In this document: in pieces, positions 5,030 through 49,012 of the stretch
Layout of the letters: each line of letters begins with the position of its first letter
How positions within the stretch are numbered: position 1 is the stretch's first letter
NCBI GenBank assembly: GCA_003152105.1
Contig: PLZJ01000002.1
Coordinates: 6,188-70,187, forward strand
Reading direction: 5' to 3'
DNA: 64,000 nucleotides
From: Candidatus Levyibacteriota bacterium
Lineage (GTDB): Bacteria > Patescibacteriota > Microgenomatia > Levybacterales > UBA12049
Translations under genes and position numbers: made by a program
The notes under the pieces: generated by a model
Told to the model about the DNA's origin: nothing
Seen by the model: the letters and a program-made list of their open reading frames with translations, nothing else
Databases searched by the model: none

Positions 5030-6241
5030 ATGAAGATTCAAAAACAATTATTATACCCAATCTTGATTGGAATATTTCTAATAATAGGTACAACTATAGT
5101 AATATTCTATGCTAAAGGGTATAGATTCGGGTTAGATAAAGGACAGCCATCATTTGGAATAACTGGACAACTAGTTTTAAAGAGTGAGCCTGATAGCGCA
5201 CAAGTATTTATTAACGGACATTTAACTACGGCTACAAATAATACGCTTGATTTAACTCCAGGAACCTACGATATTAAAATTGTAAAGGACGGTTATTTCC
5301 CTTGGGAAAAAAACTTAAAAATAGATAAGGAAGTTGTAACTTCTGTAGATGCTCGCTTATTTCCAAATTCTCCTACATCACTTGATGCAATTACACAATT
5401 AGGGGCTTTAGATCCCATACTTGACCCAAGTCAAACAAAAATTGCTTATATAGTTGCTTCTCAATCAGCAAAACTAAATGGCATATACGTATTAGATATA
5501 AGTAGCAGACCACTACTTACATTAGTAAGCGGATCAAATCAATTAGTTGATGACACAATCACTCCTTTTTCACAAGCAAAGATTCAATGGTCTCCTGATG
5601 GGAAAAATATATTAGCTACCCTATCAAATCAAAATTCAGGCTCAACCTCGTACCTTTTAGACGCATCAACAAGCAACCAAACACCACAAGATGTAACTGA
5701 GACACTAGGAACATTGGAAAGTCAGTGGGCAACGTTTTCACAAGTCCAAGACACTGCATTATTTAATGGGTTACGTAGTCCGTTAAGAAGTTTTGTATTG
5801 AAAAATTTACACGTTCTTGAATGGTCATCTGATGAGACAAAAATTTTATATCAAGCATCTTCATCTGCTAACTTCCCGTTCATTCGCGAACCAAGACTAA
5901 TTGGACTTAACTCTACGCCAGAATCTAGACAATTACAAAAGAGTTCCTATTATGTCTATGACATTAAAAACGATCAAAATTTTCTTATACCATTAGATAC
6001 TCCTAACTCTGAAGAATTATATTTAAAATGGTTCCCTGATTCAGATCATTTGATCTATGTTCACAACAAAAAGGTGGATGTAATGGAATATGATGGAACC
6101 AATTTGACAACGATATATGCTGGCCCATTCATCAACCATTATGTCTTTACTGCAGTTGATGACACCTCAAAAATCATTATTTCAACTGATTTTGGAAATT
6201 CTAATACTCCGCCAAATTTATATTCAATTAGTCTTCAATAA
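5030..6241 (+). CDS. Membrane-anchored PEGA-domain protein with PD40/TolB-like beta-propeller repeats
   Basis: N-terminal TM, then a PEGA-like segment (SAQVFINGHLTT...GTYDIKIVKDGYFPWEK). Repeats WSPDGK, WSSDETKILY and WFPDSDHLIYV resemble PD40 blades. Confidence 0.5.
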   Translation: MKIQKQLLYPILIGIFLIIGTTIVIFYAKGYRFGLDKGQPSFGITGQLVLKSEPDSAQVFINGHLTTATNNTLDLTPGTYDIKIVKDGYFPWEKNLKIDKEVVTSVDARLFPNSPTSLDAITQLGALDPILDPSQTKIAYIVASQSAKLNGIYVLDISSRPLLTLVSGSNQLVDDTITPFSQAKIQWSPDGKNILATLSNQNSGSTSYLLDASTSNQTPQDVTETLGTLESQWATFSQVQDTALFNGLRSPLRSFVLKNLHVLEWSSDETKILYQASSSANFPFIREPRLIGLNSTPESRQLQKSSYYVYDIKNDQNFLIPLDTPNSEELYLKWFPDSDHLIYVHNKKVDVMEYDGTNLTTIYAGPFINHYVFTAVDDTSKIIISTDFGNSNTPPNLYSISLQ

Positions 6242-6966
6242 GCTAAAGAGGTTAATCGTTTTGGTTTTGCTATTACCAAAAGTCTTTCAAGAGTAGTTCC
6301 AGGTGGCCAGCAAGTTTGCAGTATAAGTTGTTCGCTCCCTACATGAGGATCATTTACGTGTAATGTTTTTTGGGCATTTGTAATATAACTCGTATCATCT
6401 GGATTAACAATTTTAGAATCATCAACTATGTAATCATAACGTATTCCTTGGTAGTACACTACAATATCGTCTCCTTTTGATAAGTCTTTAAGTAAGTAGA
6501 ATACTGCATTATATCTACCTACGTCCCAAAAATTATCGGTTGAATGCGCAAATAAATAAATTGTGCCATTCATACCTGGAAAAACAGTACCTTTTGCATG
6601 AGCTACTCCTTGTTGTAAGATTGGTAAAAATATCGATGGATTAGTAGGATCTACATTTGGAAATATTTTTGCATTTGCTCCTATTTTGGGGATTACTATT
6701 CCAAAACTCGTATCTTTAGGTACAAGTAACTGAACATCGGAATTAGTAGTTAAATCTGTTCGCTGACTTACTGTAGGTATTGTACTTGTAGATGATGGTG
6801 TCTCAGCTATTACATAGTGTATTCCTCTAGCTTGATCTATTCTAAATTGAGCTTCATAATAAAGAGCTGGACCAAATGTTGCTCCCACCCCAAATAGCGC
6901 AAACAAAAGAAGAAAATTTCCAATAGTTCTTAGTACAATATATTTTATGACCTCATTTCTGTTCAC
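6235..6966 (-). CDS. Sortase-family transpeptidase
   Basis: N-terminal TM. Conserved His (LFAHSTD), catalytic 'LILQTC' (the TLxTC sortase signature) and a downstream Arg (LERLL). Confidence 0.75.
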   Translation of the reverse strand: MNRNEVIKYIVLRTIGNFLLLFALFGVGATFGPALYYEAQFRIDQARGIHYVIAETPSSTSTIPTVSQRTDLTTNSDVQLLVPKDTSFGIVIPKIGANAKIFPNVDPTNPSIFLPILQQGVAHAKGTVFPGMNGTIYLFAHSTDNFWDVGRYNAVFYLLKDLSKGDDIVVYYQGIRYDYIVDDSKIVNPDDTSYITNAQKTLHVNDPHVGSEQLILQTCWPPGTTLERLLVIAKPKRLTSLAY

Positions 6967-7186: not shown

Positions 7187-7834
7187 ATGAAACAACTAGG
7201 CCTTTGGACTGGAATAATTATTATAATAATTATAGTAATAGTAGGTTTAATTAAGCTTTCTAATTCAGCGAATTTCACATCATCAACGGGAAACTCATCT
7301 ATCCCTCCTCTCACTTCACAAGATCAAGAATTTGGAAATCCTAAAGCTAAAGTACAGTTAGTTGAATATGCAGATTTTCAATGTCCAGCATGTCTTGCTG
7401 AGTATCCAGAACTAAAGAAATTTATGAACGATTATAAAGACAAAGTACTAGTAGTGTATCGCTATTTTCCTTTGACTCAAGTACATCAAAATGCAATGGT
7501 GGCTGCACAAGCAGCATATGCAGCATCAAAGCAAGGTAAATTTTGGCAAATGCATGATAAGCTATTTGATACGCAATCTGATTGGGCTGACAGTACTAAT
7601 GCTCCAAGTATATTTGATACTTATGCGAAATCTTTAGGATTAAATATTAATGAATTTAAGAAAGATCAAAATGATACAAATGGTATAAACCTAATTAATC
7701 AAGAAGAAAATGCAGGGGTAAATGCAGGGGTAAATGCGACACCAACTTTGTTCTTAAATGGTAAGATGATAAATTCGAATCATCCTTTAAGTTATGACGA
7801 ATTAAAAAGCGTAGTAAATCCTCTTTTAAATTAG
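7187..7834 (+). CDS. Membrane-anchored thioredoxin-fold thiol:disulfide oxidoreductase (DsbA/BdbD-like)
   Basis: Poly-Ile TM anchor. 'YADFQCPACLAEYPE' CxxC active site in DsbA-like context. Confidence 0.7.
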   Translation: MKQLGLWTGIIIIIIIVIVGLIKLSNSANFTSSTGNSSIPPLTSQDQEFGNPKAKVQLVEYADFQCPACLAEYPELKKFMNDYKDKVLVVYRYFPLTQVHQNAMVAAQAAYAASKQGKFWQMHDKLFDTQSDWADSTNAPSIFDTYAKSLGLNINEFKKDQNDTNGINLINQEENAGVNAGVNATPTLFLNGKMINSNHPLSYDELKSVVNPLLN

Positions 7835-15381: not shown

Positions 15382-15455
15382 CAGAGTTATTATACGAGCT
15401 TCTTATACTATTGTACAGAGATGCAATTCGCTATGTATTTGTGTACAATATTTGT

Positions 15456-16857: not shown

Positions 16858-16858
16858 T

Positions 16859-17875: not shown

Positions 17876-17946
17876 CATCTTATTTTTTGCGCTATTGACA
17901 AGCTTGCATCCTTTATGAAATTATATAATAGATTATATTAAACTTA

Positions 17947-19416: not shown

Positions 19417-19431
19417 TGTATATAATAAATT

Positions 19432-31200: not shown

Positions 31201-33631
31201 TGTTATAAATGCAATTGGAGACTCAGGAAGTCTTATTCCAAATTCTGGATTTGAATCTGCTCTTGCGGGAACATCATCGGCAAGCACAGTATATTTTGCA
31301 GATGGTTGGGCAATAGCAGCAACAATGTCTGCCAATACAATCCCGCAAACAACACGAGATACGAGTACTTCCGCTAAAGGTCAAGCTTCAGCTAAGATAA
31401 ACTTTAATGGTGGTTTAGCAGAACAAACTGCCATTTATTCTGATTGCGTACCTTTAGCGCTAGCATCTGGAACCGGCTCATATAATTTATATTATTATGC
31501 TAAATATTCCTCTAACATTCCTACTGTACGCTCATATATTGATGGATATACGTCAAAAGCAAATTGTCAAGGCGATATAAGTCCGACAATAGGCGGGATG
31601 GGTTCTCCTACTTTAACTACTTCGTGGGCAAACTACGGAACTGCAAACATTTCAGGCTTAGGTGCAAATATTACATGGGGACGTGTTCATTTCTTTATTG
31701 CTTCAACAAATCCAGGTGGAGCAGCTTGGATAGACGGCGTAAGGCTCATAGAATCTGATACTTCTCATGGTGTTGACTATGCTGAAAATTACCCTGCAAA
31801 TCCAAGCAATATTCCTCAACCAGGAGATGTGGTTACTATCCTACCATTAAATGGTGTAACTGTTGTTCAACCCTCTACGACATATCAAGATTCCTCAACA
31901 ATTGGAGTTGTTTCAACGCAACCAGGAGAAGTGCTTGACGATGGGCAAATGCCTAGTCCAAAAGTTCCAATTGCCCTATCAGGACGAATACCAGTCAAGG
32001 TATCTACTAAATATGGCTCTATACATGTTGGAGATTATGTAACCTCTTCTGAAATACCTGGAGTAGCTGTTAAATCTACAAGACCAGGGATTGTAATTGG
32101 AACTGCAATGGAAGATGATACCGATCCTAATCCAGATGATATAAATAGCATAGTAGTATTTACACATGTAGGTTATGAAAATCCTATGCCACAAATTGCA
32201 AGCATCAATGATCTTTCTATTACTGCAAATGATAATTCTGTTGATAATTCACTTGCCTATATTATTAAAGACGCCACAGGCAATACTATTGATTATATAG
32301 ATGCATTTTCTTCTGCAGCGATTGGGGTATTAAAAGCTGGCTCAATCCAAGCAACAGATATAGCAACAAACACCCTTTCAATCAATGGTCAATCCATAAA
32401 AGATTATATCCTTTCAGTTGTACAAAATGCTGGACTTAACAACGGCACTCTTATATCACCTATTGCATCAGTGAATGAGATTCATACTAATTTAATTTCC
32501 CCGCTTTCAGAAAATGGAAATGTTGAAATAGCTTTAGGAAATAACACAGTTTCAGTTCAAAATAAAACAACTGGAAAAACAGTTGCATCTATTGATGATA
32601 ATGGAAATGCAACATTCTCAGGTACGATTCGAGCAAAACGAATTATTGCAGATGAAATAGTTGGATTAAATAACAGTACAGAGTCTGCAAGTTATATTAC
32701 TCAAAACGTTTCAAATATTACAAATGTTTATAATAGTACGCCTTCTGCAAGTTCAAACATTATCTCTCCAGTAAGTTCAGGAAGCGGACAGATTGCTTCA
32801 AATGTAGATACCCTATCTTCAAGTAATTTACAAACGAGTAATATTGATATTGCATCATATTCATCAGAGCTTCAATCTGTTAATAATCTACAAGAAACTA
32901 CTGGCAGCTTTACTGACGGTTTAATCGCTTTTGGCCCATCTAGCTTCACGGATGTTTCAGTTGCAGGAAAGTTCTCTGTTGATAGAAGTTTAACTATTGG
33001 GAGCAACTCAATAAATGTCATTGGAAACGATTTACAGCTTCAACCCCTACAACAAGGCGGCGTATCCATTGAAGGAGGATTAGTTTACATTGATGCTTCT
33101 GGAAACATGCGAGTGAATGGAAATACCGAATTTGCACAAAATGTGACAGTAAAAGGAACTTTAGCCGCAGGAATTATAAGCCCATTAGCAAATCAAAATT
33201 TGAATGTTGAGCTTCCTGGCAACAATAATTTTAATGTACAAACAGCTACAGGAAGTAGTGTATTACAAATAAATGGTAAAGGAGATATTAATTCATCTGG
33301 AAGTGGGAATTTTGCGGATGTATTAGCTAATGAATTTAACATTATTAGAAGTGCACAAGCAGATACTTCAAATACTCAAACAGTAGCAAGTGGTTCCGCA
33401 GGAACAGCAACAATTGTAAAGGGTCAAACTGAAAGAACAATTATAACACCCTATGTAAAAGCAAATTCATTGATTTATATTACTCCAACTTCAGATACAC
33501 AAGGAGTCATTCCTTATGTTGCTCGCCAAACAACAAATGATCCAGATAATAATAACAAGAGCTCATTTACTATTCAAATTTCTACACCAACATCAAAAAA
33601 TATAAATGTTAATTGGTGGATTGTAAATTAA
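22277..33631 (+). CDS. Giant (3784 aa) membrane-anchored surface protein. It has N-terminal tandem tyrosine-recombinase-type core-binding (SAM-like) domains, a basic linker, a TM anchor, a LamG-like lectin module, a Gly-rich repeat region, repeated Cys-loop modules and a conserved C-terminal module.
   Basis: aa 1-215: two copies of the 'T(V/I)KNY..D(I/V).QF.KW....LSSLRK(F/Y)' integrase N-terminal pattern. The first ATG lies after an in-frame TAA at 22265. TM 'YSITHYFHFAILIIFASTVAFITY' at ~23410-23490. LamG hallmark 'YYKFDENSGTIANDATGNGNTATLNGA..WTSSGK...LQLDGSTNYVS' at 26488-27130. Confidence 0.8.
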   Translation: MEFIKSFIDFLIEHKSSKATVKNYRADISQFVKWYEATYKTTFSPNDVTNQIIASYKTVRLSSDSNNTLSQKTIERHLSSLRKFFSYLLSENITTSNPFAASEEKQIEKDIWHIQAFKNFLYVNNSSNLTIKNYIIDVRQFLKWVEEVVQAQEAWIVTDQNIFTYINKNLIEEYRSRLIESSGFSPTSVNRKLSSLRKYISWAVDNGIVANIEEDPISNNLVKDDVLKNISENINDNKYITNKHFDEVIANQTSAYSSIPPIRLIQRAFKLLDLAFVFFLIIPTAKAFKLSKYNFWKFKGKEVFTSQTPISPKLDSINKLNRIQNNVSNRLLNLRKQNPNIKKIFYAPLSVSTKYMPFHKKLLFHLRYTRPKWYKKYHSYSITHYFHFAILIIFASTVAFITYQHFFQSKGNQAEAVAQTTIPRILSFQGILTDANGNPIATTKQIRFELYNDPSATGSGKELWEEVRTVTPDQNGIFAVNLGINGVSTGNCASFPPPGPATGACTIPVSVFTQNSNVYLGVTIGSDIELTPRQQIAAVGFAANSESLQGLIPTTDTGSISSLSLGNYYEVLATDGNGNVTLGGSTLTTIQETGGGLRLIGNPLILTTANGGNLQLSTDTKGLIDVQKPLTNTTTNGNARINGTGNVTDTGAVEVDGLFATLATSSGQSAVTIDQQSTGPVLSASVSGQAVFTIDNSGNLTNSGNITTSGSGAGLTFSGGSTHNISASGGTLQLGAITLNGAIAGGGQNITGLGTINGLGITANTGVITTGTWNANPISTQYGGTGQNWSSAAQGSIPYFSSTGGMGLIGVGSSAQCLIGGTTPTWSSCSSASSNYWQLDATGKVLSQINSYDLTVGSSPATGSSTSSAAFQVFALSKGNTPAGTISSAGNLQVAGIASSSALAVGYGINQVTANNLVVSGNVGIGTNTPAALLDIEGTTGAPNANQVLKIIGGTGVGGGSGLAGGTGAIASISAGNGGAGGSNASGNGGFGGNGGGQLILAGSGGTGGNSTLANQSGGFGGQGGTLGFVTGNGGNGGSDTAGSGAATSNGGNGGNGGDFNLILGTGGQGGSSHGSSSTIGLGGNGGSVYLQAGTGGTAGAAGNGINNDGLGGNITIAGGTGGSSTLGTFGNGGKVYIYGGLAGSGSVGNVVLAQTSAGVNQGNVGIGQANPTSILDIGTVNPTIQADSSNTNLALSTNGTGSLFIDTTAAGNIKIASNAALLSLGNSTHLTTLLGNNIYNPNITGAGNTGGVFYDANNQGSLAVTAAGSNGNCLLSGGAGAPTWGSCGSAGGSYWQLNSNVVSPVQNYFDLSVGGTATASAPFQVFASRNPLTFTPAGTISTLGNIQVAGVASSSALAVGYGQNQVQSGSGNAVFSGNVGVGTNTTSNAQLTDQLSSYTLLNSLQVYYKFDENSGTIANDATGNGNTATLNGANIWTSSGKINSGLQLDGSTNYVSTNYVGPLGSNARSVNIWFKGWTTTERTIWNYGGAGTAGALDFEEGIGGNGNSIGFRTGGGAYGYWTTSLTNDGLWHMLTVTYAAGGLENTIKLYLDGVQQNSLTDNFGGNTVNTTSGVLTMGDITGTGISGLDEFAVWGRSLTSAEVTQLYNSGSGKQYSFTSLLQLLSNSGSVLSSFNGAGSLGIGTIAQNALDVFGSAAFGSYAGNQYAPTNGLIISGNVGIGTSSPSGQLQVFGSSNNPTASISANSAYTGLLVDNSGGTSAQGSIFTASTSGITKFTVNNNGLILVGTNSTTNPGTLSVYGTIQSNGIANGGTDFLALGLPSTPTGLPQYLGNWQSTQAWALGPISNSSTDKTVYLGIASNTTGTWNGASYANLSVGGNVAVGYHYPSFTGIASLIVNQQTGGADLITASASGTTKFNVDNNGDITIAAGSYIDTNAGGTLSIGTNNATTLNLATNTNVTALSIGNGSSVDKIFGSGITTNQNSVLYLGAANQLGAATTGSSNLCLVSGANTPTWTACSGVSSNYWIQTNGIGVANGGYTALGNTTTDLLIGGTSTASAEFAVLNVAPGLTPVASVSAGSSGTGTTENSGISLSANGTIQTVGRTTLTVGGNTTGDIFFNPGGVGLGNSLSIDVGGNVGIGMNNGNVPNAPLQIRTAIPDVSNGTDINITGTMSSLTNGQYGARITPQLGISSNPASNLFEYGAENSPSFNMANTGVTFSKVFLVGSDANNFLSGNGILGTSIGFQTETTLNNDTTRVTNAIGLNVEGIVKNCLTCVVGNSTGIDIFDQSGLATNTANLVINTSGTVPTGNYSIYNASSLQNYFAGNLGLGTVSPTAQLQVVGTNSPTASISANSAFTGLVVDNKGGTANLGDIFTASASGLARFTIANNGNLTLNGSTYTTNNNSVLYTNGSGNLLAATTGSSNLCLVSGVSAPTWTACSGVSSNYWIQTNGIGVAGGGYTALGNTTTDLLIGGTSTASAKFAVLNVAPGGTPVASVSAGTSSSGTTENSGIALSANGSIQSVGKTTLTIGGNTTGDISLNPGNNGAGTLYLASTGNIGIGTTAPTAQLQVGGGLSSPGNITVSSISANTNQAGLIVDNGGGLNNAGAIFTASAAGMSRFTIANSGNLTLNASTYTANNINVLYSNSSGNVLAASTSTGNLCLTSNSGGTAAAWGNCSSASSNYWQLSGNVLSPGLLSDDLVIGGSSTSSAAFQVFSGKKTYGAITEPAGTASSSGDLSFGAANGTTQNLNILNGNSFQIRTSPGGPEGLLATPALYVKNNGNVGIGTVAPASKLEVNGDISSKNTSVQGYVYAYDTSGSHYVRMYNDGTNGYVSLSDGATLGISSNTYVFTQTQQYFRAQGNTFTNYVGLQDTDATGGKLTTSFANLNINTDMTTVVNTTGTNVSDIFAASSSATTRFVINSNGNVGIGTSQPGAQLQIVGTNAPTASISANSAYAGLVIDNKGGTNNGGDLFTASSAGQTRFRIANTGAALFQGDTLTSIGNGAQYNGSNAVINAIGDSGSLIPNSGFESALAGTSSASTVYFADGWAIAATMSANTIPQTTRDTSTSAKGQASAKINFNGGLAEQTAIYSDCVPLALASGTGSYNLYYYAKYSSNIPTVRSYIDGYTSKANCQGDISPTIGGMGSPTLTTSWANYGTANISGLGANITWGRVHFFIASTNPGGAAWIDGVRLIESDTSHGVDYAENYPANPSNIPQPGDVVTILPLNGVTVVQPSTTYQDSSTIGVVSTQPGEVLDDGQMPSPKVPIALSGRIPVKVSTKYGSIHVGDYVTSSEIPGVAVKSTRPGIVIGTAMEDDTDPNPDDINSIVVFTHVGYENPMPQIASINDLSITANDNSVDNSLAYIIKDATGNTIDYIDAFSSAAIGVLKAGSIQATDIATNTLSINGQSIKDYILSVVQNAGLNNGTLISPIASVNEIHTNLISPLSENGNVEIALGNNTVSVQNKTTGKTVASIDDNGNATFSGTIRAKRIIADEIVGLNNSTESASYITQNVSNITNVYNSTPSASSNIISPVSSGSGQIASNVDTLSSSNLQTSNIDIASYSSELQSVNNLQETTGSFTDGLIAFGPSSFTDVSVAGKFSVDRSLTIGSNSINVIGNDLQLQPLQQGGVSIEGGLVYIDASGNMRVNGNTEFAQNVTVKGTLAAGIISPLANQNLNVELPGNNNFNVQTATGSSVLQINGKGDINSSGSGNFADVLANEFNIIRSAQADTSNTQTVASGSAGTATIVKGQTERTIITPYVKANSLIYITPTSDTQGVIPYVARQTTNDPDNNNKSSFTIQISTPTSKNINVNWWIVN
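25133..25710 (+). repeat. Gly-rich low-complexity coding repeats (GGNGG/GGTGG-type) inside the giant gene
   Basis: ~190 aa of 'GGTGVGGGSGLAGGTG...NGGNGGNGGDF...GGQGGSS...GTGGTAGAAGNG'. Confidence 0.7.
28141..29775 (+). repeat. Intragenic duplication within the giant gene. Two ~365-nt copies (28141-28512 and 29411-29775) encode ~95% identical peptide modules. The nucleotide copies differ at many synonymous sites.
   Basis: Both encode 'AATTGSSNLCLVSG...PTWTACSGVSSNYWIQTNGIGVA.GGYTALGNTTTDLLIGGTSTASA.FAVLNVAPG.TPVASVSAG...TTENSGI.LSANG.IQ.VG.TTLT.GGNTTGDI'. Confidence 0.7.
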
Positions 33632-38869: not shown

Positions 38870-39137
38870 ACAGTAAGTGAAATAAGCGATTAGTTGCGTA
38901 ACATGTCTTTTAGGGAATTAGTTCGAAGCAAATAAACTAGCTGTATTACACCATACTATCTAATGCTTGTCAAGAAGTAATTTAGCAATTCTTTTTATTC
39001 CTTTAAAGTGCATTATTATTGAATCTAAAAATATTACTTACATAATACGATATTTCAGAGTAATTATTTTATAATTAGCCTTAGATGAAGAGCTTGAAAT
39101 TCTTAAAATACGGTGTTACAATACCTAATTACAACAA

Positions 39138-39177
39138 CTGCCTGTTGCTAAATCGGTTAGCAATGTGGCAGTTTTTT
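39138..39177 (+). terminator. Leader hairpin plus U-run of the same CTGCC...GGCAG type, upstream of the 39210 gene
   Basis: CTGCC-tg-TTGCTA-aatcggt-TAGCAA-tgt-GGCAG followed by TTTTTT. It lies in a divergent intergenic region with no upstream + strand gene to terminate. Confidence 0.4.
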
Positions 39178-39209: not shown

Positions 39210-39548
39210 ATGAAATATTTAGTAATAATTCTTTTTATAATTCTTAGTATCTTCTATGTGAACAAAGCAAATGCTTCATGTAAAGTAGTATATGGAGGAG
39301 GCCAAAATTCATGCACTAGTTCATCTTCATCGACAAATGGAATAGTGACACAGCAATCTCTAGGATCAAGTTCAGTTATTACTTATGGTCCTAAAACACA
39401 ACAAACAAAAGGTGGATTACCAATATATCCAACACAAAATACTACTCATACTCCTTCAACAGGTACAGAAACCCTCCCATTATTATTTGTATCCTTTCTT
39501 GGTTTGATTGGTATCGCAATAAGAAGAAAAACAACAAAATCTTTTTAA
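39210..39548 (+). CDS. Small secreted Ser/Thr-rich protein with a C-terminal tripartite sorting-like signal (TGTETLPLL + hydrophobic + RRK)
   Basis: Signal peptide. C-terminus '...STGTETLPLLFVSFLGLIGIAIRRKTTKSF'. Confidence 0.5.
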   Translation: MKYLVIILFIILSIFYVNKANASCKVVYGGGQNSCTSSSSSTNGIVTQQSLGSSSVITYGPKTQQTKGGLPIYPTQNTTHTPSTGTETLPLLFVSFLGLIGIAIRRKTTKSF

Positions 39549-39569
39549 ATCTGCTCCAATGATATTTTT

Positions 39570-40325
39570 ATGAGTACTCAAGCATTAGTATCTATTTTAC
39601 TTCCTGTAAGAAATAATGAACATCACTTAGTAGCCTGCTTAGAAAGCCTTCTTTCGCAGACGTACACAAATATAGAAATAATTGCCATAGATGATTACTC
39701 AAGAGATAATTCCTATGCAATACTAACATCATATAGAAAAAAGGATAAACGTATCAAAATATATCGTAATGTAAAACAATATGGCTTACGACTTACATTA
39801 AATAGATGCGTTAAGCGATCTCGAGGAGAATTTATCGCCTTTATGAATCCTGATGACTACTCGTCAAAAAGTAGAATCGCAAGACAAGTCCAATTCTTAT
39901 TACAAAATCAAAAAATCGCAGCAGTGGGAACTCAATGCTATATAGTCAATAGTTACGATAAAAAACTCGAGGCCTCCCGATTCCCCTCTGAACACGAAAC
40001 TATCTACAATAGCCTACTTCATACTGACTCAATGCAACCAGAATCTATAATGATTAATAAATACAATGTACCCAAAGATCTTCTCCAATTTACAAGTGAT
40101 GCATACCCTTATATATATCGAAGATTTCTACTTAATCTCGTTAAATATGGTGAGGTGGCAAATATAGGCACGAGACTCTATTTCCATAGAGACAGCAATA
40201 TTGTTAAACTTTCTATGAGAAAATATCTCCCAATATTTATGAAGCTTTTGGTTAAATCACATACGCTGTATGATTATAGACCTACATTTTCAGCATTATT
40301 CATGCCTCTAGTTAAAGGGATTTAG
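39570..40325 (+). CDS. GT2-family glycosyltransferase
   Basis: 'ILLPVRNNEHHL...IEIIAIDDYSRDNS' GT-A N-terminal signature with DxD-type 'NPDD'. Confidence 0.7.
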   Translation: MSTQALVSILLPVRNNEHHLVACLESLLSQTYTNIEIIAIDDYSRDNSYAILTSYRKKDKRIKIYRNVKQYGLRLTLNRCVKRSRGEFIAFMNPDDYSSKSRIARQVQFLLQNQKIAAVGTQCYIVNSYDKKLEASRFPSEHETIYNSLLHTDSMQPESIMINKYNVPKDLLQFTSDAYPYIYRRFLLNLVKYGEVANIGTRLYFHRDSNIVKLSMRKYLPIFMKLLVKSHTLYDYRPTFSALFMPLVKGI

Positions 40326-40440
40326 GATTAACCAGACTACAAATATATTATAGTAATATTGTCCTATAATTTTTAGTACATATAATATATTTCTTCATTT
40401 TAGAGGTATAATAATCGCTCGATTCGGAAAAACTGACTAC

Positions 40441-40469
40441 TTGACAAGTCCTATAACATTAACTATAAT
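40441..40469 (+). promoter_or_regulatory. Consensus sigma70-type promoter (TTGACA-17-TATAAT), first of two in tandem
   Basis: TTGACA 40441-40446, 17-nt spacer, TATAAT 40464-40469. Exact match to both hexamers. Confidence 0.6.
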
Positions 40470-40496
40470 GCTCTAATATTACTTTAGGCAGGTAAA

Positions 40497-40525
40497 TTGA
40501 CAACAAGCAAAGGATAATTTATAAT
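40497..40525 (+). promoter_or_regulatory. Second consensus sigma70-type promoter (TTGACA-17-TATAAT)
   Basis: TTGACA 40497-40502, 17-nt spacer, TATAAT 40520-40525. 35 nt upstream of the ATG at 40560. Confidence 0.6.
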
Positions 40526-40534
40526 CCTTCCAAA

Positions 40535-40559
40535 CTGCCTACAAAAAGGCAGTTTTTTT
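40535..40559 (+). terminator. Leader hairpin plus U-run (intrinsic-terminator-like/attenuator) abutting the 40560 start codon
   Basis: CTGCCT-acaaaa-AGGCAG followed by TTTTTTT, then ATG. Confidence 0.45.
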
Positions 40560-41279
40560 ATGAAAAAATTAATCAGCATATTACCAATCATACTAGTACT
40601 TCTCAGCTCGTTTGCGGGTCAAACTTTTGCCGATGATTATGGAGTATCTAACTATGGTAGTAATTGTAATAGTTCCTATGGTGGCAGCAATTATTCTGGT
40701 TCCTCATGTTCTGTTAGTACCATTAGCATAAACAAGCTTGTACAAAATCCAAAATCAAAACAATATGTGGAAAATCTCGCATTAACTGATCCTAATTATG
40801 CTCCAAATCAAATAGTGCCTTTTCAAATTAATATAACAAACACTGGCAATACTTCTCTTACAAATGTAAAAGTAGTAGATAGTTTCCCACAATACACAAC
40901 CTTTGCCGGTGGACAAGGCAGCTATAATCAAAGTCAAAATACTGATACCATTACCGTTGGTAGCCTAAATCCTAATCAAAGTGAATCTATTATGGTAGAT
41001 GGAAAAGTCGGAGATACTAACACTTTACCACAAAATCAGTCACAATTTTGTTTAGTTAATGAAGCAAGCGTAACGGCGGATAATATACCATCAAGCACAG
41101 CTAATTCTCAATTCTGTGTGACTCAGCAAATTTCCGGAGTTACAACTAAAGGAGGGCTTGAAGTAGCCTCACCAACAACTATATCAAAAACTCCTGGGAC
41201 TGGACCTGAAGCATTACCTTTACTTGCTCTTTTACCAACTGGATTATTAGGTGCTTTGCTTCGAAGAAAAACTAAATAA
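40560..41279 (+). CDS. Secreted DUF11/CARDB-like repeat-domain protein with the same C-terminal sorting-like signal (TGPEALPLL + hydrophobic + RRK)
   Basis: Signal peptide. 'FQINITNTGNTSLTNVKVVDSFP' is typical of the DUF11 conserved-repeat domain. C-terminus '...TPGTGPEALPLLALLPTGLLGALLRRKTK'. Confidence 0.55.
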   Translation: MKKLISILPIILVLLSSFAGQTFADDYGVSNYGSNCNSSYGGSNYSGSSCSVSTISINKLVQNPKSKQYVENLALTDPNYAPNQIVPFQINITNTGNTSLTNVKVVDSFPQYTTFAGGQGSYNQSQNTDTITVGSLNPNQSESIMVDGKVGDTNTLPQNQSQFCLVNEASVTADNIPSSTANSQFCVTQQISGVTTKGGLEVASPTTISKTPGTGPEALPLLALLPTGLLGALLRRKTK

Positions 41280-43124: not shown

Positions 43125-44054
43125 ATGAAAAAAAATATAAAACAAATATTACCACTGATCTCAGTTATTATGCCTGTATATAATGCGGGAGATTATTTAG
43201 TGCCTGCAGTTGAAAGTATTCTACATCAAACTTACCAAAACTTTGAATTTATTATCATAGACGACGCTTCTACTGATAATTCGCTCGACGTACTCAGAAG
43301 ATATAAAAAATTATACCCGGATAAGATAAAATTACTAGCTTTAAAGAAAAATCGGAATCATGGCGGTGATCGATGCGTAAACCAAGGATTAAAACTAGCA
43401 AAAGGTAAATATATTGCTCGAATGGATGCCGATGATATCGCCGTATTGACTCGACTTGAAAAACAAGTTACATTTTTAGAAACTCATCCTGATATATTTT
43501 TAGTTGGTTCATCTGCGCATGTCATAGATTCTAAAGGTAATACTATTGGTGAAAAACTTGAACCTAACTCAACAAAAGACATTTACAATGCGTATTTTAC
43601 ATTTCATCCATTAATTCATCCAACTTGCATGTTTAGAAGAATTCATAAAGGTATTGAGTTTAGGTACAATATTAAATTTAGTGCGAACAATGATTATTAC
43701 ACTTTTTTCGGGATTCTCTGTAAAGGGTACAAATTTATTAATCTTGATGAAAAACTACTTTATTATAGAATCCATGGAAAGAATGACACCTTTGTGAATA
43801 TGAAACAGAAGTTTAGTAATACTCTTAAAATCAGATATGAAATCGTTACAAAATATGGATATAAACCAAGCCCAAGAGCTCTACTTATCACCATATTTCA
43901 AAGCTTAGCAATTTATCTATTGCCTGAAAAGATGCTACGAAATCTTTATTTTCTTGCAAAAGGAATTACAAAAAAAGAACAAATTGTATTCCAACTTAAT
44001 CCTTATGGATTCATTTCCCTATTTGGAAGAAAAATACTCGCCTTTACTTCTTAA
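43125..44054 (+). CDS. GT2-family glycosyltransferase
   Basis: 'ISVIMPVYNAGDYL...FEFIIIDDASTDNS...ARMDADD' GT-A fold motifs. Confidence 0.75.
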   Translation: MKKNIKQILPLISVIMPVYNAGDYLVPAVESILHQTYQNFEFIIIDDASTDNSLDVLRRYKKLYPDKIKLLALKKNRNHGGDRCVNQGLKLAKGKYIARMDADDIAVLTRLEKQVTFLETHPDIFLVGSSAHVIDSKGNTIGEKLEPNSTKDIYNAYFTFHPLIHPTCMFRRIHKGIEFRYNIKFSANNDYYTFFGILCKGYKFINLDEKLLYYRIHGKNDTFVNMKQKFSNTLKIRYEIVTKYGYKPSPRALLITIFQSLAIYLLPEKMLRNLYFLAKGITKKEQIVFQLNPYGFISLFGRKILAFTS

Positions 44055-44059
44055 AACCT

Positions 44060-45757
44060 ATGAATCTATTTAGTAAAATTATTTCTCCTTATAATGTAAT
44101 TTTTAATGTCTTATTAGTGCTTATGGCGATAGGGCTTACCTTCCCAGCAATACTACATATTAACCAATTAGCTATGGGTGATGGTGGAGATAATTATCAA
44201 TATGTTGGATTTCAATATGTAGCTCATGTGCTTTTTTCTCACGGCTATTTTCCTTTTACATGGACTAATTTATGGAGATATCCTGCCGGTATTAATTTTC
44301 AATTAGCTTTTGACTCATCATTCTTTATTATGATAGGTGTATTTCTCTATCAATTTTCACAAAATCCAATATTAATTTATAACTTATCGATGTTAGTTGC
44401 GCTCTATTGTAATTTGGTATTGAGCTATATTAGCTTTCGCGTATGGTTTGATAAAACTACGGCTTTTATTGGAACCATAATATATGGTGCTTCTTTTTAC
44501 ACAATCGCACGACTTGCAGGTCATGCAAATTTAATGCTAAGCGCAACAATACCCTTCTTTTTTGCATCTATATGGCTCTTCTACAAAAGGAAGGATTTGA
44601 TAAGTATTGGATATATTGGAATTGCAATATTATTACTTCTTTCATCTTCCCTTGAATATCCACTTATATTAATCGGCGGTCTTATCTTTGGTTCACCAAT
44701 ACTATATTTATTTTATCCAAACGAGATGAACAAGCTACTTCAGCTTGGATTTAAAAAAATTATTCTCCTAATAATTATCGTTTGCTTAGCTGTTGGAATA
44801 TTTTCTATTGTACAAGGAGAAAAACTCCTTAGTATATTTAATAACTCAGTTCAACTTCCTTATCAAGGCCTACAATATGTTGAATCTATTAATTTTTTTA
44901 CTCCAAACAACTATGTATATAACTTAAGTGGAATAATTGCAAATCCTACAGGTAGAGGAATTGAAAAAGCAAGCGTATTCTTTGGGTATACTGAATTACT
45001 TTTATTCGTTATTGCGCTTTATTATCTAAGACGCAAACGCATAACGCTCGCGCTTGGAAGTATATTTATTATTTATTTCATCATTGCACAAGGAGTTCAA
45101 ACGCAATTAAGTTCTATATGGCCTTATCAATATCTATTTTTAGAACCACCTTTTCGGGACATAGTTGAACCGGGGAGATTCTTTCTAATTTTCTATTTTG
45201 TATCTACGATTCTGATTTTGCTTTTCATAAAGCATATAAAAAGTAAGAAAATAATTATTGTAATACTACTTTTATTAATAATTGAAAGAATACCAATTAA
45301 TTTCCCGATACGTGGCTACCCTACAGAAAATTTTATACCGATAGTACAAAAATCGGATTCAAATGCTGTGTTAGACTTACCTATTTTTACCGATTGGTGG
45401 AATGGACCACTTTATGATTATTACAGCATTTTATACCAAAAACCAATTGTAAATGGATATATTCATTGGTCTGGAAATACACCCAACGCAAAATATTTTA
45501 CGGATTCATTAAATTCTTTTTCATGCTATTCTGGAGCGTCAACACAAATTGACAAATCAGATGCAGAACTCATGAAAAATCAATTAATTACTCAGCTAAA
45601 ACAAAATAACATTAAAACTGTTGTTATTCATAAAGATATCTATCATTTTCCTGAATGTACAAAAGCTGCATATTATATACAAACATTAACCCAAGATAAT
45701 CAAGTCTGGAAGATTTTATTCCAAGATGACAAAACCATAGTATTGTGGTTACAATAA
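44060..45757 (+). CDS. Polytopic integral membrane protein (putative GT-C-like glycosyltransferase or glycan-assembly protein)
   Basis: More than 10 hydrophobic helices. Linked to GT2 genes. No motif I can name with certainty. Confidence 0.35.
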   Translation: MNLFSKIISPYNVIFNVLLVLMAIGLTFPAILHINQLAMGDGGDNYQYVGFQYVAHVLFSHGYFPFTWTNLWRYPAGINFQLAFDSSFFIMIGVFLYQFSQNPILIYNLSMLVALYCNLVLSYISFRVWFDKTTAFIGTIIYGASFYTIARLAGHANLMLSATIPFFFASIWLFYKRKDLISIGYIGIAILLLLSSSLEYPLILIGGLIFGSPILYLFYPNEMNKLLQLGFKKIILLIIIVCLAVGIFSIVQGEKLLSIFNNSVQLPYQGLQYVESINFFTPNNYVYNLSGIIANPTGRGIEKASVFFGYTELLLFVIALYYLRRKRITLALGSIFIIYFIIAQGVQTQLSSIWPYQYLFLEPPFRDIVEPGRFFLIFYFVSTILILLFIKHIKSKKIIIVILLLLIIERIPINFPIRGYPTENFIPIVQKSDSNAVLDLPIFTDWWNGPLYDYYSILYQKPIVNGYIHWSGNTPNAKYFTDSLNSFSCYSGASTQIDKSDAELMKNQLITQLKQNNIKTVVIHKDIYHFPECTKAAYYIQTLTQDNQVWKILFQDDKTIVLWLQ

Positions 45758-45760
45758 ACT

Positions 45761-48700
45761 ATGCTTCGTTATTTAAAGAATCATGTTTTTCCTCTTCTTA
45801 TTATTTTAATTTCCTTCATAGTCTTCATACGTAATTATATTCCCGGAACATATTTAATTGGCTGGGACAATCTAATGCCTGAATTCGATATAGCATTAAA
45901 CTTCAAACGAGCTATTTTTGGCCTTTGGCAAGACTATAGAGGAATAGGAATTTTAGATGGCATGTCCAATACGGCAACATTTTTTCATACTACTTATATT
46001 TACCTACTTTCCTTTTTATTACCTCAAAATATGCTTAGGTATGTATTCATTTATGGTACTTTTATGGTTGGGGGTATAGGATTTTATTATTTTATTAATT
46101 ACATATTATCCAAAAATCATGAACATATTAGTAAAAGAACAATTCAAATAGTATCTTTTTCGGGTGCGTTATTTTACATGTTTAATCTTGACGTAATTCA
46201 GATGTATTTTGCACCCCTTGAATTATTCGCAGTTCACTTTGCAGCATTGCCTTTCTTAGCTTGGAGAATAAGCTGCACACTAGATAAACCCAGTAAACGA
46301 AACTTATTATTACTTTTACTTGTAAGTTTACTTACGACACCTCAAAGTTTTGTTCCCACAGTCTTTATTGCCTTCTGTATTCTTATTTTTTTCCTATTAC
46401 TCTTCTCTTTTATTCATTCTAAAAATTGGAGGGCAATACTACTTACTGCTTTAATACTTATTTCATCAAATGCATTCTGGGCTCTTCCTTACTTATATAG
46501 TGGTCCAAAAACAGCAACCATTATAAAAAACGCAAGGATTAATCAATTTTCTTCAGAAGAAATTTTTTATCGTAATAAAGCACGAGGCGATTTATTAAGT
46601 GTATTTCGAATGCAGGGATTCATGATTGACACCATTGAGTACGACCAAATTAACAATAAGGATGTATTATTTATGGACGCTTGGAGGAATCATCAAAGTT
46701 CTTTCTTTTATATAGTTATCTTTACATTGATATTTATATCTACGATGTATGGTATCTACTATTCATTTCGAAAAAGAAATTACGTTTTATTTCCGTATTT
46801 TGCTACGCTCTTTGTCGCTTTTGTATTTTTAGCAAATGATGCTCCAGTACTTGGAGGTGTAAATGATTTTATTAGAAATTATTTTCCTCTCCTTGGTGAA
46901 GCATTCCGATTTCCTTTTACTAAATTTTCGACGTTATATGCTTTTTGTTTTACGATATTTTTCTCCTATGGACTGCTGCGCATACTTGTTAAATGGAATA
47001 AATATAAAAACTTCATACTTACAATAAGCATTATAGGTATTATGTTTTTAGGCTTACCTGCATTTATGGGTAATTTTACTTCTCCTCTTTTGAAACTACA
47101 AATTCCAAATGATTACTTGCAAACCTTTAACTATTTTCAGCATCAAGATGAAAATGCCAGAATTGCTCTACTTCCTGCTCATACGTTTTGGAATTGGCAA
47201 TATAGAACCTGGGGACAAAGAGGATCGGGATTCTTATGGTACGGCATCCCACAATCAATCATGGAGCGTGCATTTGATCCATGGAGCAATTATAACGAAC
47301 AGGCTTTTAACGAACTATCTTATACGATAAATTCTCAAGATAAGCAAGCCTTTTTAAATGTACTTGTTAAATACAATATGTCCTATGTGCTTGTTGATCA
47401 ATATTTGTTAGATACACTAACTAGACAACCAGTTAACTATGATAGTTTAAATCGGTTTCTTTCCTCTTGTCCATTTCTTCAAAAGAAAAAAGAATTTGGA
47501 AAAATAGAGATTTATTACATAAAACCTGCTGATAAATGGATATATTCATTAGCACAAGGCTCAACAGCTCATGTTTCACCACAATTCAATTATGAAAATG
47601 TAGATTTAGCTAGTAATGATTCTAGTAACTATATCTATGATACTAGCTTACCGGATCTAGGATATCTTTTTCCTTCACTCTTTACAGAAAAAGAACAAGA
47701 AGATTTGGAATTTAATGCCAATGATCAAGGTGATAATATTACAATAACTTCAAATAAAACATATCCACAAAATCAAAGTAACCTAGAATTAGAGATACCA
47801 AATATATATTCGACTGAATTTTTAATTCCTTTTTCTATACAAAAAATAAATAATATAATTTCTTTTAATGTTCTGTACCCAAAATTATATATTAATAATC
47901 AATTAGTACCACTAGCTTCCCAACCAATACAAATACATCCGACTGTAGTTAAAAATCCTCAGCAGATGATACTTCAAGACACGAATGACACGATTAATAT
48001 GACAAAATCCAATAATAGAGGATATTTAATAAATAACACCTTAAATATTATTACCTTAAAAAATGGTAAAAATAAAGAAAACGTCGAGATTGATTTACAC
48101 CATGGAAATTTAACTCCTTTCCATTATAAGATTGCTTCAGGAAATATTACTTTAGTAAAAGCAGTTATTCACAAAATACATGGGCCTTTAGCAAATGAGC
48201 AAGTTATCGCAAAAGGTAACTATCAAATACATGAATTTAAAAATCCTATAAATCCATACGGAAGCTCGTTTGGAAAAGTTGAAAAAAACCAATCACATGT
48301 GACCCTTACCGTACAAAGCGAATCAGAAGAACTCACACTATATCAGAATAACTTATTTCATCAAGGCTCTTATATTTTATTTGCTAATACAACCTATGGT
48401 TCAGGTTTACCAATAAATTTTTATGTAGATAACACGTTTGAAAAACGCGCCGAAGTTGAGAGTGATTTTTCGGAGTATAGAAATCAAACTATTGAAATTA
48501 TTCCACCAACTGAAATGTATTTTTCAGGTTATGGATTTCATTTTACTGTTAAATCTGTAGGAAACGAGATCGCTAGCTCCACTATTAACGACATAAATAT
48601 ATACCCATTTCCTCAAAACTTCTTAAAGTCTATTAAAATATTAAGTAATAATACTGGATTAATAAATAAAAACCAACCTTCACAATCACTACAATTTAGC

Positions 48701-49012
48701 AAACCGCTTCCTTTTATCTATATTGTAAAGCCAACATCAACTGCATCATACCTAGTACTATCTCAATCATTTGAATCTGGATGGCACGCATATGCTATTA
48801 ATGAGTTGACAATTCCGAACATCCTATTCCCCTTTCTATTTGAAAGAGAACTGCCCCATGTCCTTGTTAACAATTGGGCAAACGGTTGGACGTTTAATTT
48901 GGCTAGCACCTATATTGATCTTATATTTATTCCTCAATATTTAACATTTATAGGAATATTAATACTCCTTATTTCCATAATATACTTACTACTTAAGAAA
49001 TATTCTGCTTAA
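45761..49012 (+). CDS. Large (1083 aa) membrane protein. It has an N-terminal multi-TM bundle, a large extracytoplasmic domain and a C-terminal TM (YfhO/GT-C-like topology).
   Basis: Topology by eye: ~12 TM in the first 450 aa and a final TM 'LTFIGILILLISIIYLLL'. Start codon 4 nt after the upstream gene. Confidence 0.4.
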   Translation: MLRYLKNHVFPLLIILISFIVFIRNYIPGTYLIGWDNLMPEFDIALNFKRAIFGLWQDYRGIGILDGMSNTATFFHTTYIYLLSFLLPQNMLRYVFIYGTFMVGGIGFYYFINYILSKNHEHISKRTIQIVSFSGALFYMFNLDVIQMYFAPLELFAVHFAALPFLAWRISCTLDKPSKRNLLLLLLVSLLTTPQSFVPTVFIAFCILIFFLLLFSFIHSKNWRAILLTALILISSNAFWALPYLYSGPKTATIIKNARINQFSSEEIFYRNKARGDLLSVFRMQGFMIDTIEYDQINNKDVLFMDAWRNHQSSFFYIVIFTLIFISTMYGIYYSFRKRNYVLFPYFATLFVAFVFLANDAPVLGGVNDFIRNYFPLLGEAFRFPFTKFSTLYAFCFTIFFSYGLLRILVKWNKYKNFILTISIIGIMFLGLPAFMGNFTSPLLKLQIPNDYLQTFNYFQHQDENARIALLPAHTFWNWQYRTWGQRGSGFLWYGIPQSIMERAFDPWSNYNEQAFNELSYTINSQDKQAFLNVLVKYNMSYVLVDQYLLDTLTRQPVNYDSLNRFLSSCPFLQKKKEFGKIEIYYIKPADKWIYSLAQGSTAHVSPQFNYENVDLASNDSSNYIYDTSLPDLGYLFPSLFTEKEQEDLEFNANDQGDNITITSNKTYPQNQSNLELEIPNIYSTEFLIPFSIQKINNIISFNVLYPKLYINNQLVPLASQPIQIHPTVVKNPQQMILQDTNDTINMTKSNNRGYLINNTLNIITLKNGKNKENVEIDLHHGNLTPFHYKIASGNITLVKAVIHKIHGPLANEQVIAKGNYQIHEFKNPINPYGSSFGKVEKNQSHVTLTVQSESEELTLYQNNLFHQGSYILFANTTYGSGLPINFYVDNTFEKRAEVESDFSEYRNQTIEIIPPTEMYFSGYGFHFTVKSVGNEIASSTINDINIYPFPQNFLKSIKILSNNTGLINKNQPSQSLQFSKPLPFIYIVKPTSTASYLVLSQSFESGWHAYAINELTIPNILFPFLFERELPHVLVNNWANGWTFNLASTYIDLIFIPQYLTFIGILILLISIIYLLLKKYSA

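Follow-up and report, generated by a model that had tools for sequence, protein, structure and literature searches.

Two paralogous secreted proteins of a Levyibacteriota bacterium carry a TPxTG-type C-terminal signal and are probable substrates of an unclassified sortase

Two genes for small secreted proteins of 112 and 239 residues lie at 39210-41279 of a 64,000-nucleotide stretch of DNA from Candidatus Levyibacteriota bacterium (contig PLZJ01000002.1), which is called the window here. Both proteins end in a short motif, a hydrophobic segment and a tail rich in arginine and lysine. The question raised by this locus is whether these C-termini are a sorting signal and, if so, which enzyme would read it. 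The analysis suggests that the two proteins are paralogues and that they are probably sortase substrates with a lineage-specific LPXTG-type signal, which consists of TPxTG(P)E, a 17-residue helix and RKK and would be processed by the unclassified sortase of the same genome. The two proteins would probably be the first predicted clients of the sortase of this lineage. As judged from the alignments, the signal is of the LPXTG type with threonine in place of leucine, and is therefore a variant and not a new category of sorting system. The two genes, found as open reading frames (ORFs), and the parts of their products are as follows.

39210..39548 (+): the mini gene (112 residues), from the ORF call and also called as a gene in a public assembly.
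39210..39275 (+): predicted Sec signal peptide of the mini protein (residues 1-22), from a hydrophobic N-terminus and an A-x-A site (...NKANA/S) read by eye.
39279..39314 (+): N-terminal Cys loop CKVVYGGGQNSC of the mini protein (residues 24-35), common with the CLIPPER-type members.
39405..39419 (+): TKGGL of the mini protein (residues 66-70), with the TP of the sorting motif 15 residues further on.
39450..39470 (+): TPSTG and then TE in the mini protein (residues 81-87), with a predicted cut at T84/G85 by analogy with sortases, including the one that reads (S/P)PXTG (PMC4155245).
39471..39521 (+): 17-residue hydrophobic segment TLPLLFVSFLGLIGIAI of the mini protein (residues 88-104), from hydropathy.
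39522..39545 (+): basic tail RRKTTKSF of the mini protein (residues 105-112), from the family charge pattern.
40560..41279 (+): the CLIPPER/DUF11-type gene (239 residues), from the ORF call and a Pfam DUF11 match of 43.7 bits.
40560..40631 (+): predicted signal peptide of the 239-residue protein (residues 1-24, ...QTFA/DD), from a hydrophobic N-terminus and a model helix at residues 5-17, with the cut site read from the sequence.
40722..41123 (+): CLIPPER (DUF11) immunoglobulin-like (Ig-like) beta-sandwich (residues 55-188), from an AlphaFold model with block-mean pLDDT (predicted local distance difference test) of 86-98.
41145..41159 (+): TKGGL of the 239-residue protein (residues 196-200), from the family alignment.
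41190..41210 (+): TPGTG and then PE in the 239-residue protein (residues 211-217), with a predicted cut at T214/G215.
41211..41261 (+): 17-residue hydrophobic segment ALPLLALLPTGLLGALL of the 239-residue protein (residues 218-234), a helix in the model, which holds an LPTG that is not part of the motif.
41262..41276 (+): basic tail RRKTK of the 239-residue protein (residues 235-239), from the sequence.

The initial annotation had described two small secreted proteins with signal peptides and had quoted their C-termini; the reading frames and sequences are exactly as given there. The 112-residue protein begins with MKYLVIILFIILSIFYVNKANA, followed by SC after the predicted cut, and ends in ...TKGGLPIYPTQNTTHTPSTGTETLPLLFVSFLGLIGIAIRRKTTKSF. 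The 239-residue protein begins with MKKLISILPIILVLLSSFAGQTFA, followed by DD, and ends in ...TKGGLEVASPTTISKTPGTGPEALPLLALLPTGLLGALLRRKTK. The signal peptides were judged from hydropathy and A-x-A-type sites and, for the 239-residue protein, also from the model. The exact 112-residue protein is present in public collections (cluster of P0193), and mini-like proteins occur in other genomes (P0031, P0033, P0036-P0038).

The similarity of the two C-termini is not limited to this pair. In a BLASTP comparison of the two proteins, 43 C-terminal residues align without gaps and are 49% identical; there is a weak N-terminal match as well, and the E-value is 0.001. A hidden Markov model (HMM) of the module was built from 20 tails, all from other genomes, and run on the 510 window ORFs of at least 40 residues. 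It gave 70.0 bits (E 2.8e-21) for the 239-residue protein and 53.1 bits (E 5.5e-16) for the 112-residue protein, and the next-best ORF reached a non-significant 2.9 bits. A scan of the window for C-terminal hydrophobic segments with basic tails found only ordinary membrane anchors beyond the two proteins. A word-indexed protein search with the tail profile returned 16 short proteins, and an exhaustive search of 1.84 billion representative proteins with the 46-residue module profile was used instead. The exhaustive search returned 385 clusters at E<=1e-3, of which 193 reach E<=1e-10, and the module is at the extreme C-terminus in all 150 matches listed. A degenerate DNA pattern for TKGG-N11-TPxTGxE was also run on 185,579 GTDB species representatives; 56 of its 58 matches are genuine family genes, at loci of 31-51% G+C. 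The conserved tripartite tail that had been proposed thus recurs in 385 clusters and at 56 loci among the species representatives.

The common C-terminal region is about 46 residues long and begins at TKGGL. Its conserved core is TKGGL, ten residues, and then T-P-x-T-G-P-E. The 239-residue protein has 26 homologues at E<=1.2e-26, and the single one with an organism name is from Patescibacteria. In the C-terminal region of these homologues T196, P212, T214, G215 and P216 are invariant, and K197, G198, G199, L200, V202, T211, E217 and L221 are conserved at more than 90%. Position 1 of the pentapeptide is threonine in 152 of 182 family members; the remaining 30 have A, N, S, Q, V, L, I or M, with asparagine in 6 and leucine in 2. 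Position 4 is serine in five of the 182 and threonine otherwise. The glycine is followed by PE, directly before the hydrophobic segment, in 157 members, and the residue after PE is A, M, T or L. TKGG is exactly 15 residues upstream of the motif in 157 of the 182 and is invariant in alignment A2. No length variation is seen downstream of the motif. The hydrophobic segment has 17 residues (5th-95th percentile) with L +10, L +13, P +15, G +20 and L +23 conserved, and positions +24 to +26 are R (0.92), K/R (0.94) and K (0.82). From the start of the motif to the C-terminus there are 32 residues for TPSTG and 29 for TPGTG. The mean majority-residue frequency in the 239-residue protein is highest in TPxTGPE (0.91), compared with 0.69 for the whole module, 0.59 for the CLIPPER domain and 0.39 for the signal peptide. 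Conservation of the heptad exceeds that of the folded domain, which suggests specific recognition by an enzyme.

These alignments change the description of the motif. The initial annotation had given it as TG-x-E-x-LPLL, which is in the wrong register; the conserved core is TPxTG(P)E, and only the T-G of the pentapeptide was covered. LPLL is not part of the motif, being the variable start of the membrane segment in the family alignment. The tails had also been said to match neither the LPXTG nor the PEP-CTERM consensus. The P-x-T-G columns are in fact invariant among the 26 homologues, LPXTG agrees with the motif at four of five positions and at the canonical place, and one homologue (P0042) reads LPPTGPE at the same register as TPxTGPE. 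The LPTG that had been pointed out in the 239-residue protein consists of only four residues within the membrane segment, and homologues have IPSG, IPAA or LSSG in its place. A separate feature of the family is an extended cytoplasmic tail ending in GG[ES][KR] (for example ...KGGEK), which is present in 13 of the 182 members (P0003, P0005, P0011, P0017, P0026 and P0027; loci L006, L008, L031, L036, L051, L057 and L058).

An NCBIfam scan found no curated sorting-signal model that reached its cut-off on either window protein; the mini protein scored 13.9 bits against VPxxxP-CTERM, which has a cut-off of 30. Weak matches among 64 family tails were to LPXTG_anchor in 20 (best E 0.0012), MYXO-CTERM in 6, NPXTG in 5 and GlyGly-CTERM (MprA tail) in 4. 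PEP_CTERM (TIGR02595) was matched by one tail of the 64 with an E-value of 0.073, and the window proteins read PEA and TET at the corresponding place. Because of these counts the nearest curated concept is LPXTG and not PEP-CTERM, to which the tails had initially been assigned as closest. Both window proteins have a P2/T4/G5 pentapeptide 17-45 residues from the C-terminus, a hydrophobic segment, a basic tail and an N-terminal hydrophobic signal. By this place of the motif and the tripartite build, both tails qualify as sortase substrates under the operational criteria of PMC4155245, with threonine at position 1 where canonical class A motifs have leucine. A search for TPXTG in the searchable literature gave no result, and no substrate or motif of sortases of the candidate phyla radiation (CPR) was found described there. 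The proposal that the signal is an undescribed variant holds as far as curated models and searchable literature are concerned, and four of its five positions are those of LPXTG.

The proteins that carry the module form two groups of roughly 60-150 and 215-295 residues, and the full 46-residue module was seen on those two size classes only. Complete short members begin with a signal peptide, which is followed by a C-x-[PI]-I-Y-G-G-G-x-x-C loop, then by a Pro/Thr linker and finally by the module, while long members have the same Cys loop, a CLIPPER domain and the module. The mini protein follows the short plan, with a signal peptide, a Cys loop, a Ser/Thr-rich linker and the 46-residue C-terminal module and without a folded domain. 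Its Cys loop is SCKVVYGGGQNSC, and a degenerate copy is present in the 239-residue protein. The family consensus of the loop is CQPIYGGGQTC, found in 106 of 144 full-length members (18/30 short, 88/114 long). Judged by their sequences, the two window genes belong to one family as paralogues, of which one has the Ig domain and the other lacks it. Paralogy means that the common tail stems from common descent and not from independent acquisition. The two proteins were thus rejected as independent carriers of a portable signal, since they are paralogues and the full module is confined to the two size classes.

The folded part of the 239-residue protein is a DUF11 domain (PF01345) with 43.7 bits against a gathering score of 24.6. 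DUF11 is now named CLIPPER in Pfam and has a CnaA-like Ig fold, often with an intramolecular isopeptide bond (PMC12617251). The AlphaFold model, made with 26 homologues, has a confident beta-sandwich at residues 55-188, an extended linker and a C-terminal helix. Its top Foldseek matches include the CLIPPER structure 9IFR, the BcpA pilin and SdrD. Residues K59, D107, N167, C164 and C186 of the domain are invariant in the 26 homologues. The invariant Lys, Asp and Asn fit the triad of an intramolecular isopeptide bond of the CLIPPER fold, which may be predicted on this basis.

Many of the metagenome-assembled genomes (MAGs) with a family gene are named Levybacteria/Levyibacteriota or Patescibacteria. 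Many other family-bearing MAGs (loci L005-L062) are third-party annotation (TPA) assemblies titled 'uncultured Gammaproteobacteria bacterium'. These labels are likely wrong, since the family gene and the synteny with Rho and M23 genes are as in Levybacteria.

The window holds one sortase gene, which had already been pointed out in the initial annotation. The gene is real and its His/Cys/Arg triad is intact; it is located on the minus strand. The sortase and its two neighbours are as follows.

6235..6966 (-): sortase with an N-terminal membrane helix and a catalytic domain, Pfam Sortase (PF04203).
7187..7834 (+): membrane-anchored thiol-disulfide oxidoreductase of the DsbA/MdbA-like type, with matches to Pfam Thioredoxin_4 (92 bits) and DSBA.
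5030-6241 (+): membrane-anchored PEGA-domain protein, convergent with the sortase gene with a 7-bp overlap.

The Pfam score of the sortase is 72.6 bits against a gathering cut-off of 26.6, and 30 homologues all retain the catalytic residues H141, C219 (in LILQTCWPPG) and R228. With the class-specific NCBIfam models the enzyme scores 22-52 bits where the cut-offs are 140-166, the best being 52.3 for the LPxTATN-specific SrtD (cut-off 140) and 46.6 for class D (165). Since these scores are far below the cut-offs, the enzyme fits none of the classes A-F or GN. The general sortase_fam model gives 37.9 bits against 39.35. A single-sequence phmmer search with the sortase against the PDB returned nothing at 1e-3, and a profile reached sortases there at about 30 bits. 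The AlphaFold model has a sortase fold, which Foldseek matches to classes C, D, E and A about equally (E 3e-10) at 22-27% identity to solved sortases. Relatives of the enzyme number in the thousands, and the top matches among those with names come from Levybacteria and are about 60% identical. [quoted passage not shown] The best named relatives of the tail family are Levybacteria as well, and similar MAG names appear in both lists, for example GW2011_GWA1_37_16.

The genes around the sortase were compared across 80 related metagenomic loci, and the PEGA gene was nearby in 64 and the oxidoreductase in 39. The oxidoreductase is a possible folding factor for the Cys-containing family proteins. 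The Cys pairs of the substrates (the N-terminal loop and C164/C186) are conserved, so a disulfide-forming enzyme beside the sortase would be coherent. Residues 1-46 of the sortase include a membrane helix that is almost invariant in 30 homologues, including polar R13, N17, T30 and E38. This conserved helix and the fixed-length substrate segment with its conserved Pro and Gly hint at recognition between helices within the membrane. One other candidate substrate was seen in the 0.53 Mb formed by the module loci and the window, a 270-residue Levybacteria protein at L007:5999-6838 (+). It has an N-terminal signal or anchor, a folded N-domain and a long Pro/Thr/Ser linker, and it ends in ...SFPPTGGPPGNQGKTEWPVLLAGIILAGAMGTWLTVAYRRR, laid out as FPPTGG, 12 residues, a transmembrane (TM) segment and RRR. 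It is possibly a second kind of sortase substrate with the motif FPPTG.

If the two proteins are sortase substrates, both would be exported by their Sec signal peptides. The last approximately 30 residues of the module would act as the sorting signal, with TPxTG, a hydrophobic stop-transfer segment and an Arg/Lys tail, and the tail would hold the protein in the membrane. The membrane-anchored sortase (6235-6966, -) would then cut between Thr and Gly and move the Thr carboxyl onto an amine of a peptidoglycan precursor. As a result the wall would display a single CLIPPER Ig-like domain from the 239-residue protein, and from the 112-residue protein a short, possibly glycosylated Ser/Thr-rich peptide with an N-terminal disulfide loop.

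Several observations weigh against sortase processing. The mini protein scores 10.9 bits with LPXTG_anchor (TIGR01167, cut-off 15.9 bits), and the NCBIfam scan gave no match of the 239-residue protein to this model. The sortase gene is on the same 918-kb contig as the family genes and is 33 kb away from them. No substrate-like ORF was found within 10 kb on either side of the 80 related sortase genes (0.73 Mb), so the sortase and its proposed substrates are without genomic linkage. The segment that a sortase would discard is unusually conserved (P +15, G +20, fixed length), and a conserved membrane segment would be more typical of exosortase or rhombosortase signals recognized within the membrane. 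The conserved PE directly before this segment is PEP-CTERM-like, and a plain sorting signal does not explain TKGGL at its fixed upstream spacing. A rival reading is a stop-transfer anchor that is never cleaved, in which TKGGL...TPxTGPE serves another purpose, such as a site of O-glycosylation or of protein-protein interaction for the glycosyltransferases encoded nearby. The region is Thr/Pro-rich, and the family genes are syntenic with genes of glycosyltransferase family 2 (GT2) and with a gene for a large membrane protein but unlinked to the sortase; moreover, the whole 46-residue module is conserved as a unit in a single family, which simple homology could yield. However, it is exactly P-x-T-G that is conserved, with the hydrophobic segment and basic tail at the canonical distance, one homologue has LPPTG at the same place, and the variation at position 1 is of a kind known for sortase motifs. 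The heptad is also better conserved than the folded domain, and a sortase is present for which no other substrate is evident in 1.3 Mb of related sequence. It is therefore unlikely that the tail is only an anchor. Chance likeness of low-complexity hydrophobic C-termini could be argued from the shortness of the sequences and the pairwise E-value of 0.001, and is extremely improbable in view of the independent HMM scores (70 and 53 bits against at most 2.9 for other window ORFs), the 385 clusters with the module at the extreme C-terminus of all 150 listed, and the 56 true family members among 58 pattern matches. The initial annotation had named such chance similarity, with the motif absent from related genomes, as the outcome that would speak against it; the module profile and the GTDB pattern find the motif widely.

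Another explanation is that an intramembrane enzyme other than a sortase (exosortase- or archaeosortase-like, or undescribed) cuts at or near the Pro-Glu, and that this enzyme is perhaps an adjacent multi-pass protein. In 157 of 182 members the hydrophobic segment starts right after PE, and the conserved Pro and Gly, the fixed-length segment and the RKK that follows resemble PEP-CTERM. Exosortase systems are typically linked to polysaccharide genes, and the conserved neighbours here are glycosyltransferases and large multi-pass proteins without a known family. On the other hand, no exosortase-like polytopic protein had been evident in the initial annotation, and exosortase, archaeosortase and rhombosortase models had no match at E<=1 on the four multi-pass membrane proteins of the window, which covers about 7% of the genome. 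PEP_CTERM matches one tail of 64 and LPXTG_anchor 20. In place of the last Pro of 'PEP' these tails have A, M, T or L, P-x-T-G is conserved at least as well as P-E, and the mini protein has TE. The 1083-residue neighbour looks rather like a GT-C-type partner of a GT2 enzyme, given its weak DUF6541 match and its architecture. CPR envelopes look Gram-positive-like and apparently lack an outer membrane (PMC6744442), which also argues against an exosortase-type system. An intramembrane enzyme of this kind is thus quite unlikely. A further extension of the sortase reading would give the Lys of TKGG, at its fixed spacing of 15 residues from TPxT, a role as a nucleophile for the same sortase, so that CLIPPER and mini subunits are joined Thr-to-Lys into a covalent surface polymer (fibre or sheath), with the substrates recognized partly via conserved membrane helices of both partners. 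Such a polymer is a speculative proposal and is considered very unlikely. Processing of the TPxTG signal by the genome's own sortase, with wall anchoring of the products, remains the probable explanation.

The genes around the two family members, and the sequences upstream of them, give an indication of how the products may be used. The features concerned are listed here.

39570..40325 (+): GT2 glycosyltransferase gene that separates the two family genes, 22 bp downstream of the mini gene, Pfam Glycos_transf_2 (104 bits).
43125-44054 (+): second GT2 gene, from the Pfam/NCBIfam scan and synteny.
44060-45757 (+): 565-residue protein with 12 TM segments and without a known family, from the TM count.
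45761-49012 (+): 1083-residue protein with 9 TM segments and a large external domain, from the TM count and synteny.
39136..39173 (+): leader hairpin AACTGCC...GGCAGTT with a T-run upstream of the mini gene, from an inverted-repeat scan.
40533-40554 (+): leader hairpin AACTGCC...GGCAGTT with a T-run directly before the ATG of the 239-residue gene, from an inverted-repeat scan.
40441-40469 and 40497-40525 (+): two tandem sigma-70-type promoters with 12/12 consensus positions before the 239-residue gene, from a consensus scan.

GT2 genes recur beside family genes in other genomes. The conserved order is Rho (minus strand), family gene, an unknown gene, GT2 and a membrane protein of roughly 1000-1200 residues. 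The downstream cluster of GT2 and the large membrane protein was seen at L001, L003, L008, L011, L030 and L045. This large GT2-paired protein has approximately nine N-terminal TM segments, an external domain and a C-terminal TM segment after a conserved NNWANGW. The genes at 43125..49012 together form a possible, putative surface-glycosylation module. Three nearby multi-pass proteins, of 723 (with a C-terminal TPR region), 565 and 1083 residues, are without an assignable membrane-domain family. The 1083-residue protein has no Pfam assignment and no PDB match with a seven-sequence profile, and two of its seven homologues have a weak match to DUF6541. This family presumably belongs to the GT-C group. 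The protein may be a GT-C-like glycosyltransferase; its architecture and its pairing with GT2 would fit an extracytoplasmic glycosylation module better than a sorting enzyme.

The AACTGCC...GGCAGTT repeat occurs twice in the 64 kb, once for each family gene, and 0.01 occurrences are expected by chance. A hairpin with another stem sequence and a T-run is often found in the same position at orthologues (for example L007, L016, L021, L024, L027, L036, L043, L050 and L057). The hairpin could be an attenuator or a 5' stem-loop that stabilizes the mRNA. A near-consensus promoter (at least 11/12) is present upstream of 57% of orthologues and 13% of control ORFs, a 'CCTATAA' spacer element upstream of 49% and 5%, and a hairpin with a T-run before the ATG of 26% and 9%, respectively. 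Orthologues in distantly related MAGs (L013-L061) repeatedly have a promoter of the form TTGACA-x-GTCCTATAA...TATAAT upstream. These promoters suggest expression at a very high level or a regulator site conserved within the spacer. The consensus promoters, the common hairpin and the adjacent glycosyltransferases suggest that the two proteins are abundant, possibly glycosylated surface components.

The window also has some further features. The giant ORF at 22277-33631 (+) encodes 3784 residues with precomputed Phage_int_SAM-type Pfam matches in the public record, and the one at 50927-57643 (-) encodes 2238 residues with an N-terminal signal or anchor. Both are without a sorting-type tail at the C-terminus. 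The G+C content is about 0.40-0.42 across 24-32 kb and about 0.33 elsewhere in the window. A run of membrane or secreted genes at 15273-20451 (+) may be another cell-surface assembly cluster. The product of 16835-17875 within this run has a WxL-interacting-protein peptidoglycan-binding domain and a C-terminal TM segment. The Pam pili of the 'Novel Pilus System in CPR' preprint were considered and set aside as a different system, which uses donor-strand exchange and is independent of sortase.

The surfaces of CPR bacteria mediate an episymbiotic lifestyle and are largely uncharted, and a concrete substrate prediction is offered here for sortases, which are reportedly present in nearly all Microgenomates. 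Current annotation models miss the TPxTG-PE motif, and the partner sortase is outside the recognized classes. If the prediction is true, models of sorting signals could be extended to CPR genomes, and one of the main surface components that Levybacteria anchor in their wall would become known. Protein ligation might also gain a sortase of distinct specificity. If the TKGG lysine were a transpeptidation acceptor, the result would be a new kind of sortase-built polymer in CPR bacteria.

The closest known system is LPXTG with its sortase (TIGR01167/PF00746; PF04203). The two have in common a signal peptide, a tripartite C-terminus with its motif about 30 residues from the end, an acidic residue soon after the Gly, and a membrane-anchored His/Cys/Arg sortase in the genome. 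The present family differs in having Thr at position 1 (84% of 182) and an almost invariable Pro-Glu after the Gly, in the high conservation of the segment that would be discarded, in TKGGL exactly 15 residues upstream and in a sortase that is below the cut-offs of classes A-F and GN. PEP-CTERM and its exosortase (TIGR02595, EpsH) are alike in the Pro-Glu before a Gly-containing helix, the Arg/Lys cluster and the glycosyltransferase neighbours. In contrast, the third Pro is missing here, P-x-T-G upstream is equally conserved, and the host lineage is thought to be without an outer membrane.

The sortase-assembled pilins (BcpA, SpaA), with CnaA/CnaB and CLIPPER domains (PMC12617251), also have a secreted CnaA-type domain with conserved Lys/Asp/Asn, a C-terminal sortase signal and a conserved Lys outside the domain. 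Pilus assembly in Actinomyces offers a further parallel, a DsbA/MdbA-like oxidoreductase beside the sortase. Here there is one small domain and no pilus gene cluster, and neither window protein sequence has a YPKN-type pilin motif as read. The sole conserved Lys outside the domain (TKGG) is near the C-terminal end, and a few members lack it. The region of the window sortase N-terminal of the barrel is variable, and hence there is no apparent lid; by its scores the enzyme is not class C.

Another related system is SrtB of Clostridium difficile, for which cleavage of (S/P)PXTG between T and G has been demonstrated experimentally (PMC4155245). Both have a single housekeeping-type sortase, a small residue other than Leu at position 1, often an acidic residue after the Gly, and few substrates per genome. 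SrtB is from Firmicutes and not from CPR bacteria, its position 1 is Ser or Pro instead of Thr, and its substrates are diverse proteins whereas one family was found here, in which cleavage is predicted by analogy. The NPXTG signal of Ruminococcus (NCBIfam NF033846) belongs to another taxon and to other protein families, with Asn where Thr is the rule here; it is likewise a lineage-specific variant of LPXTG at position 1, and one that is already curated.

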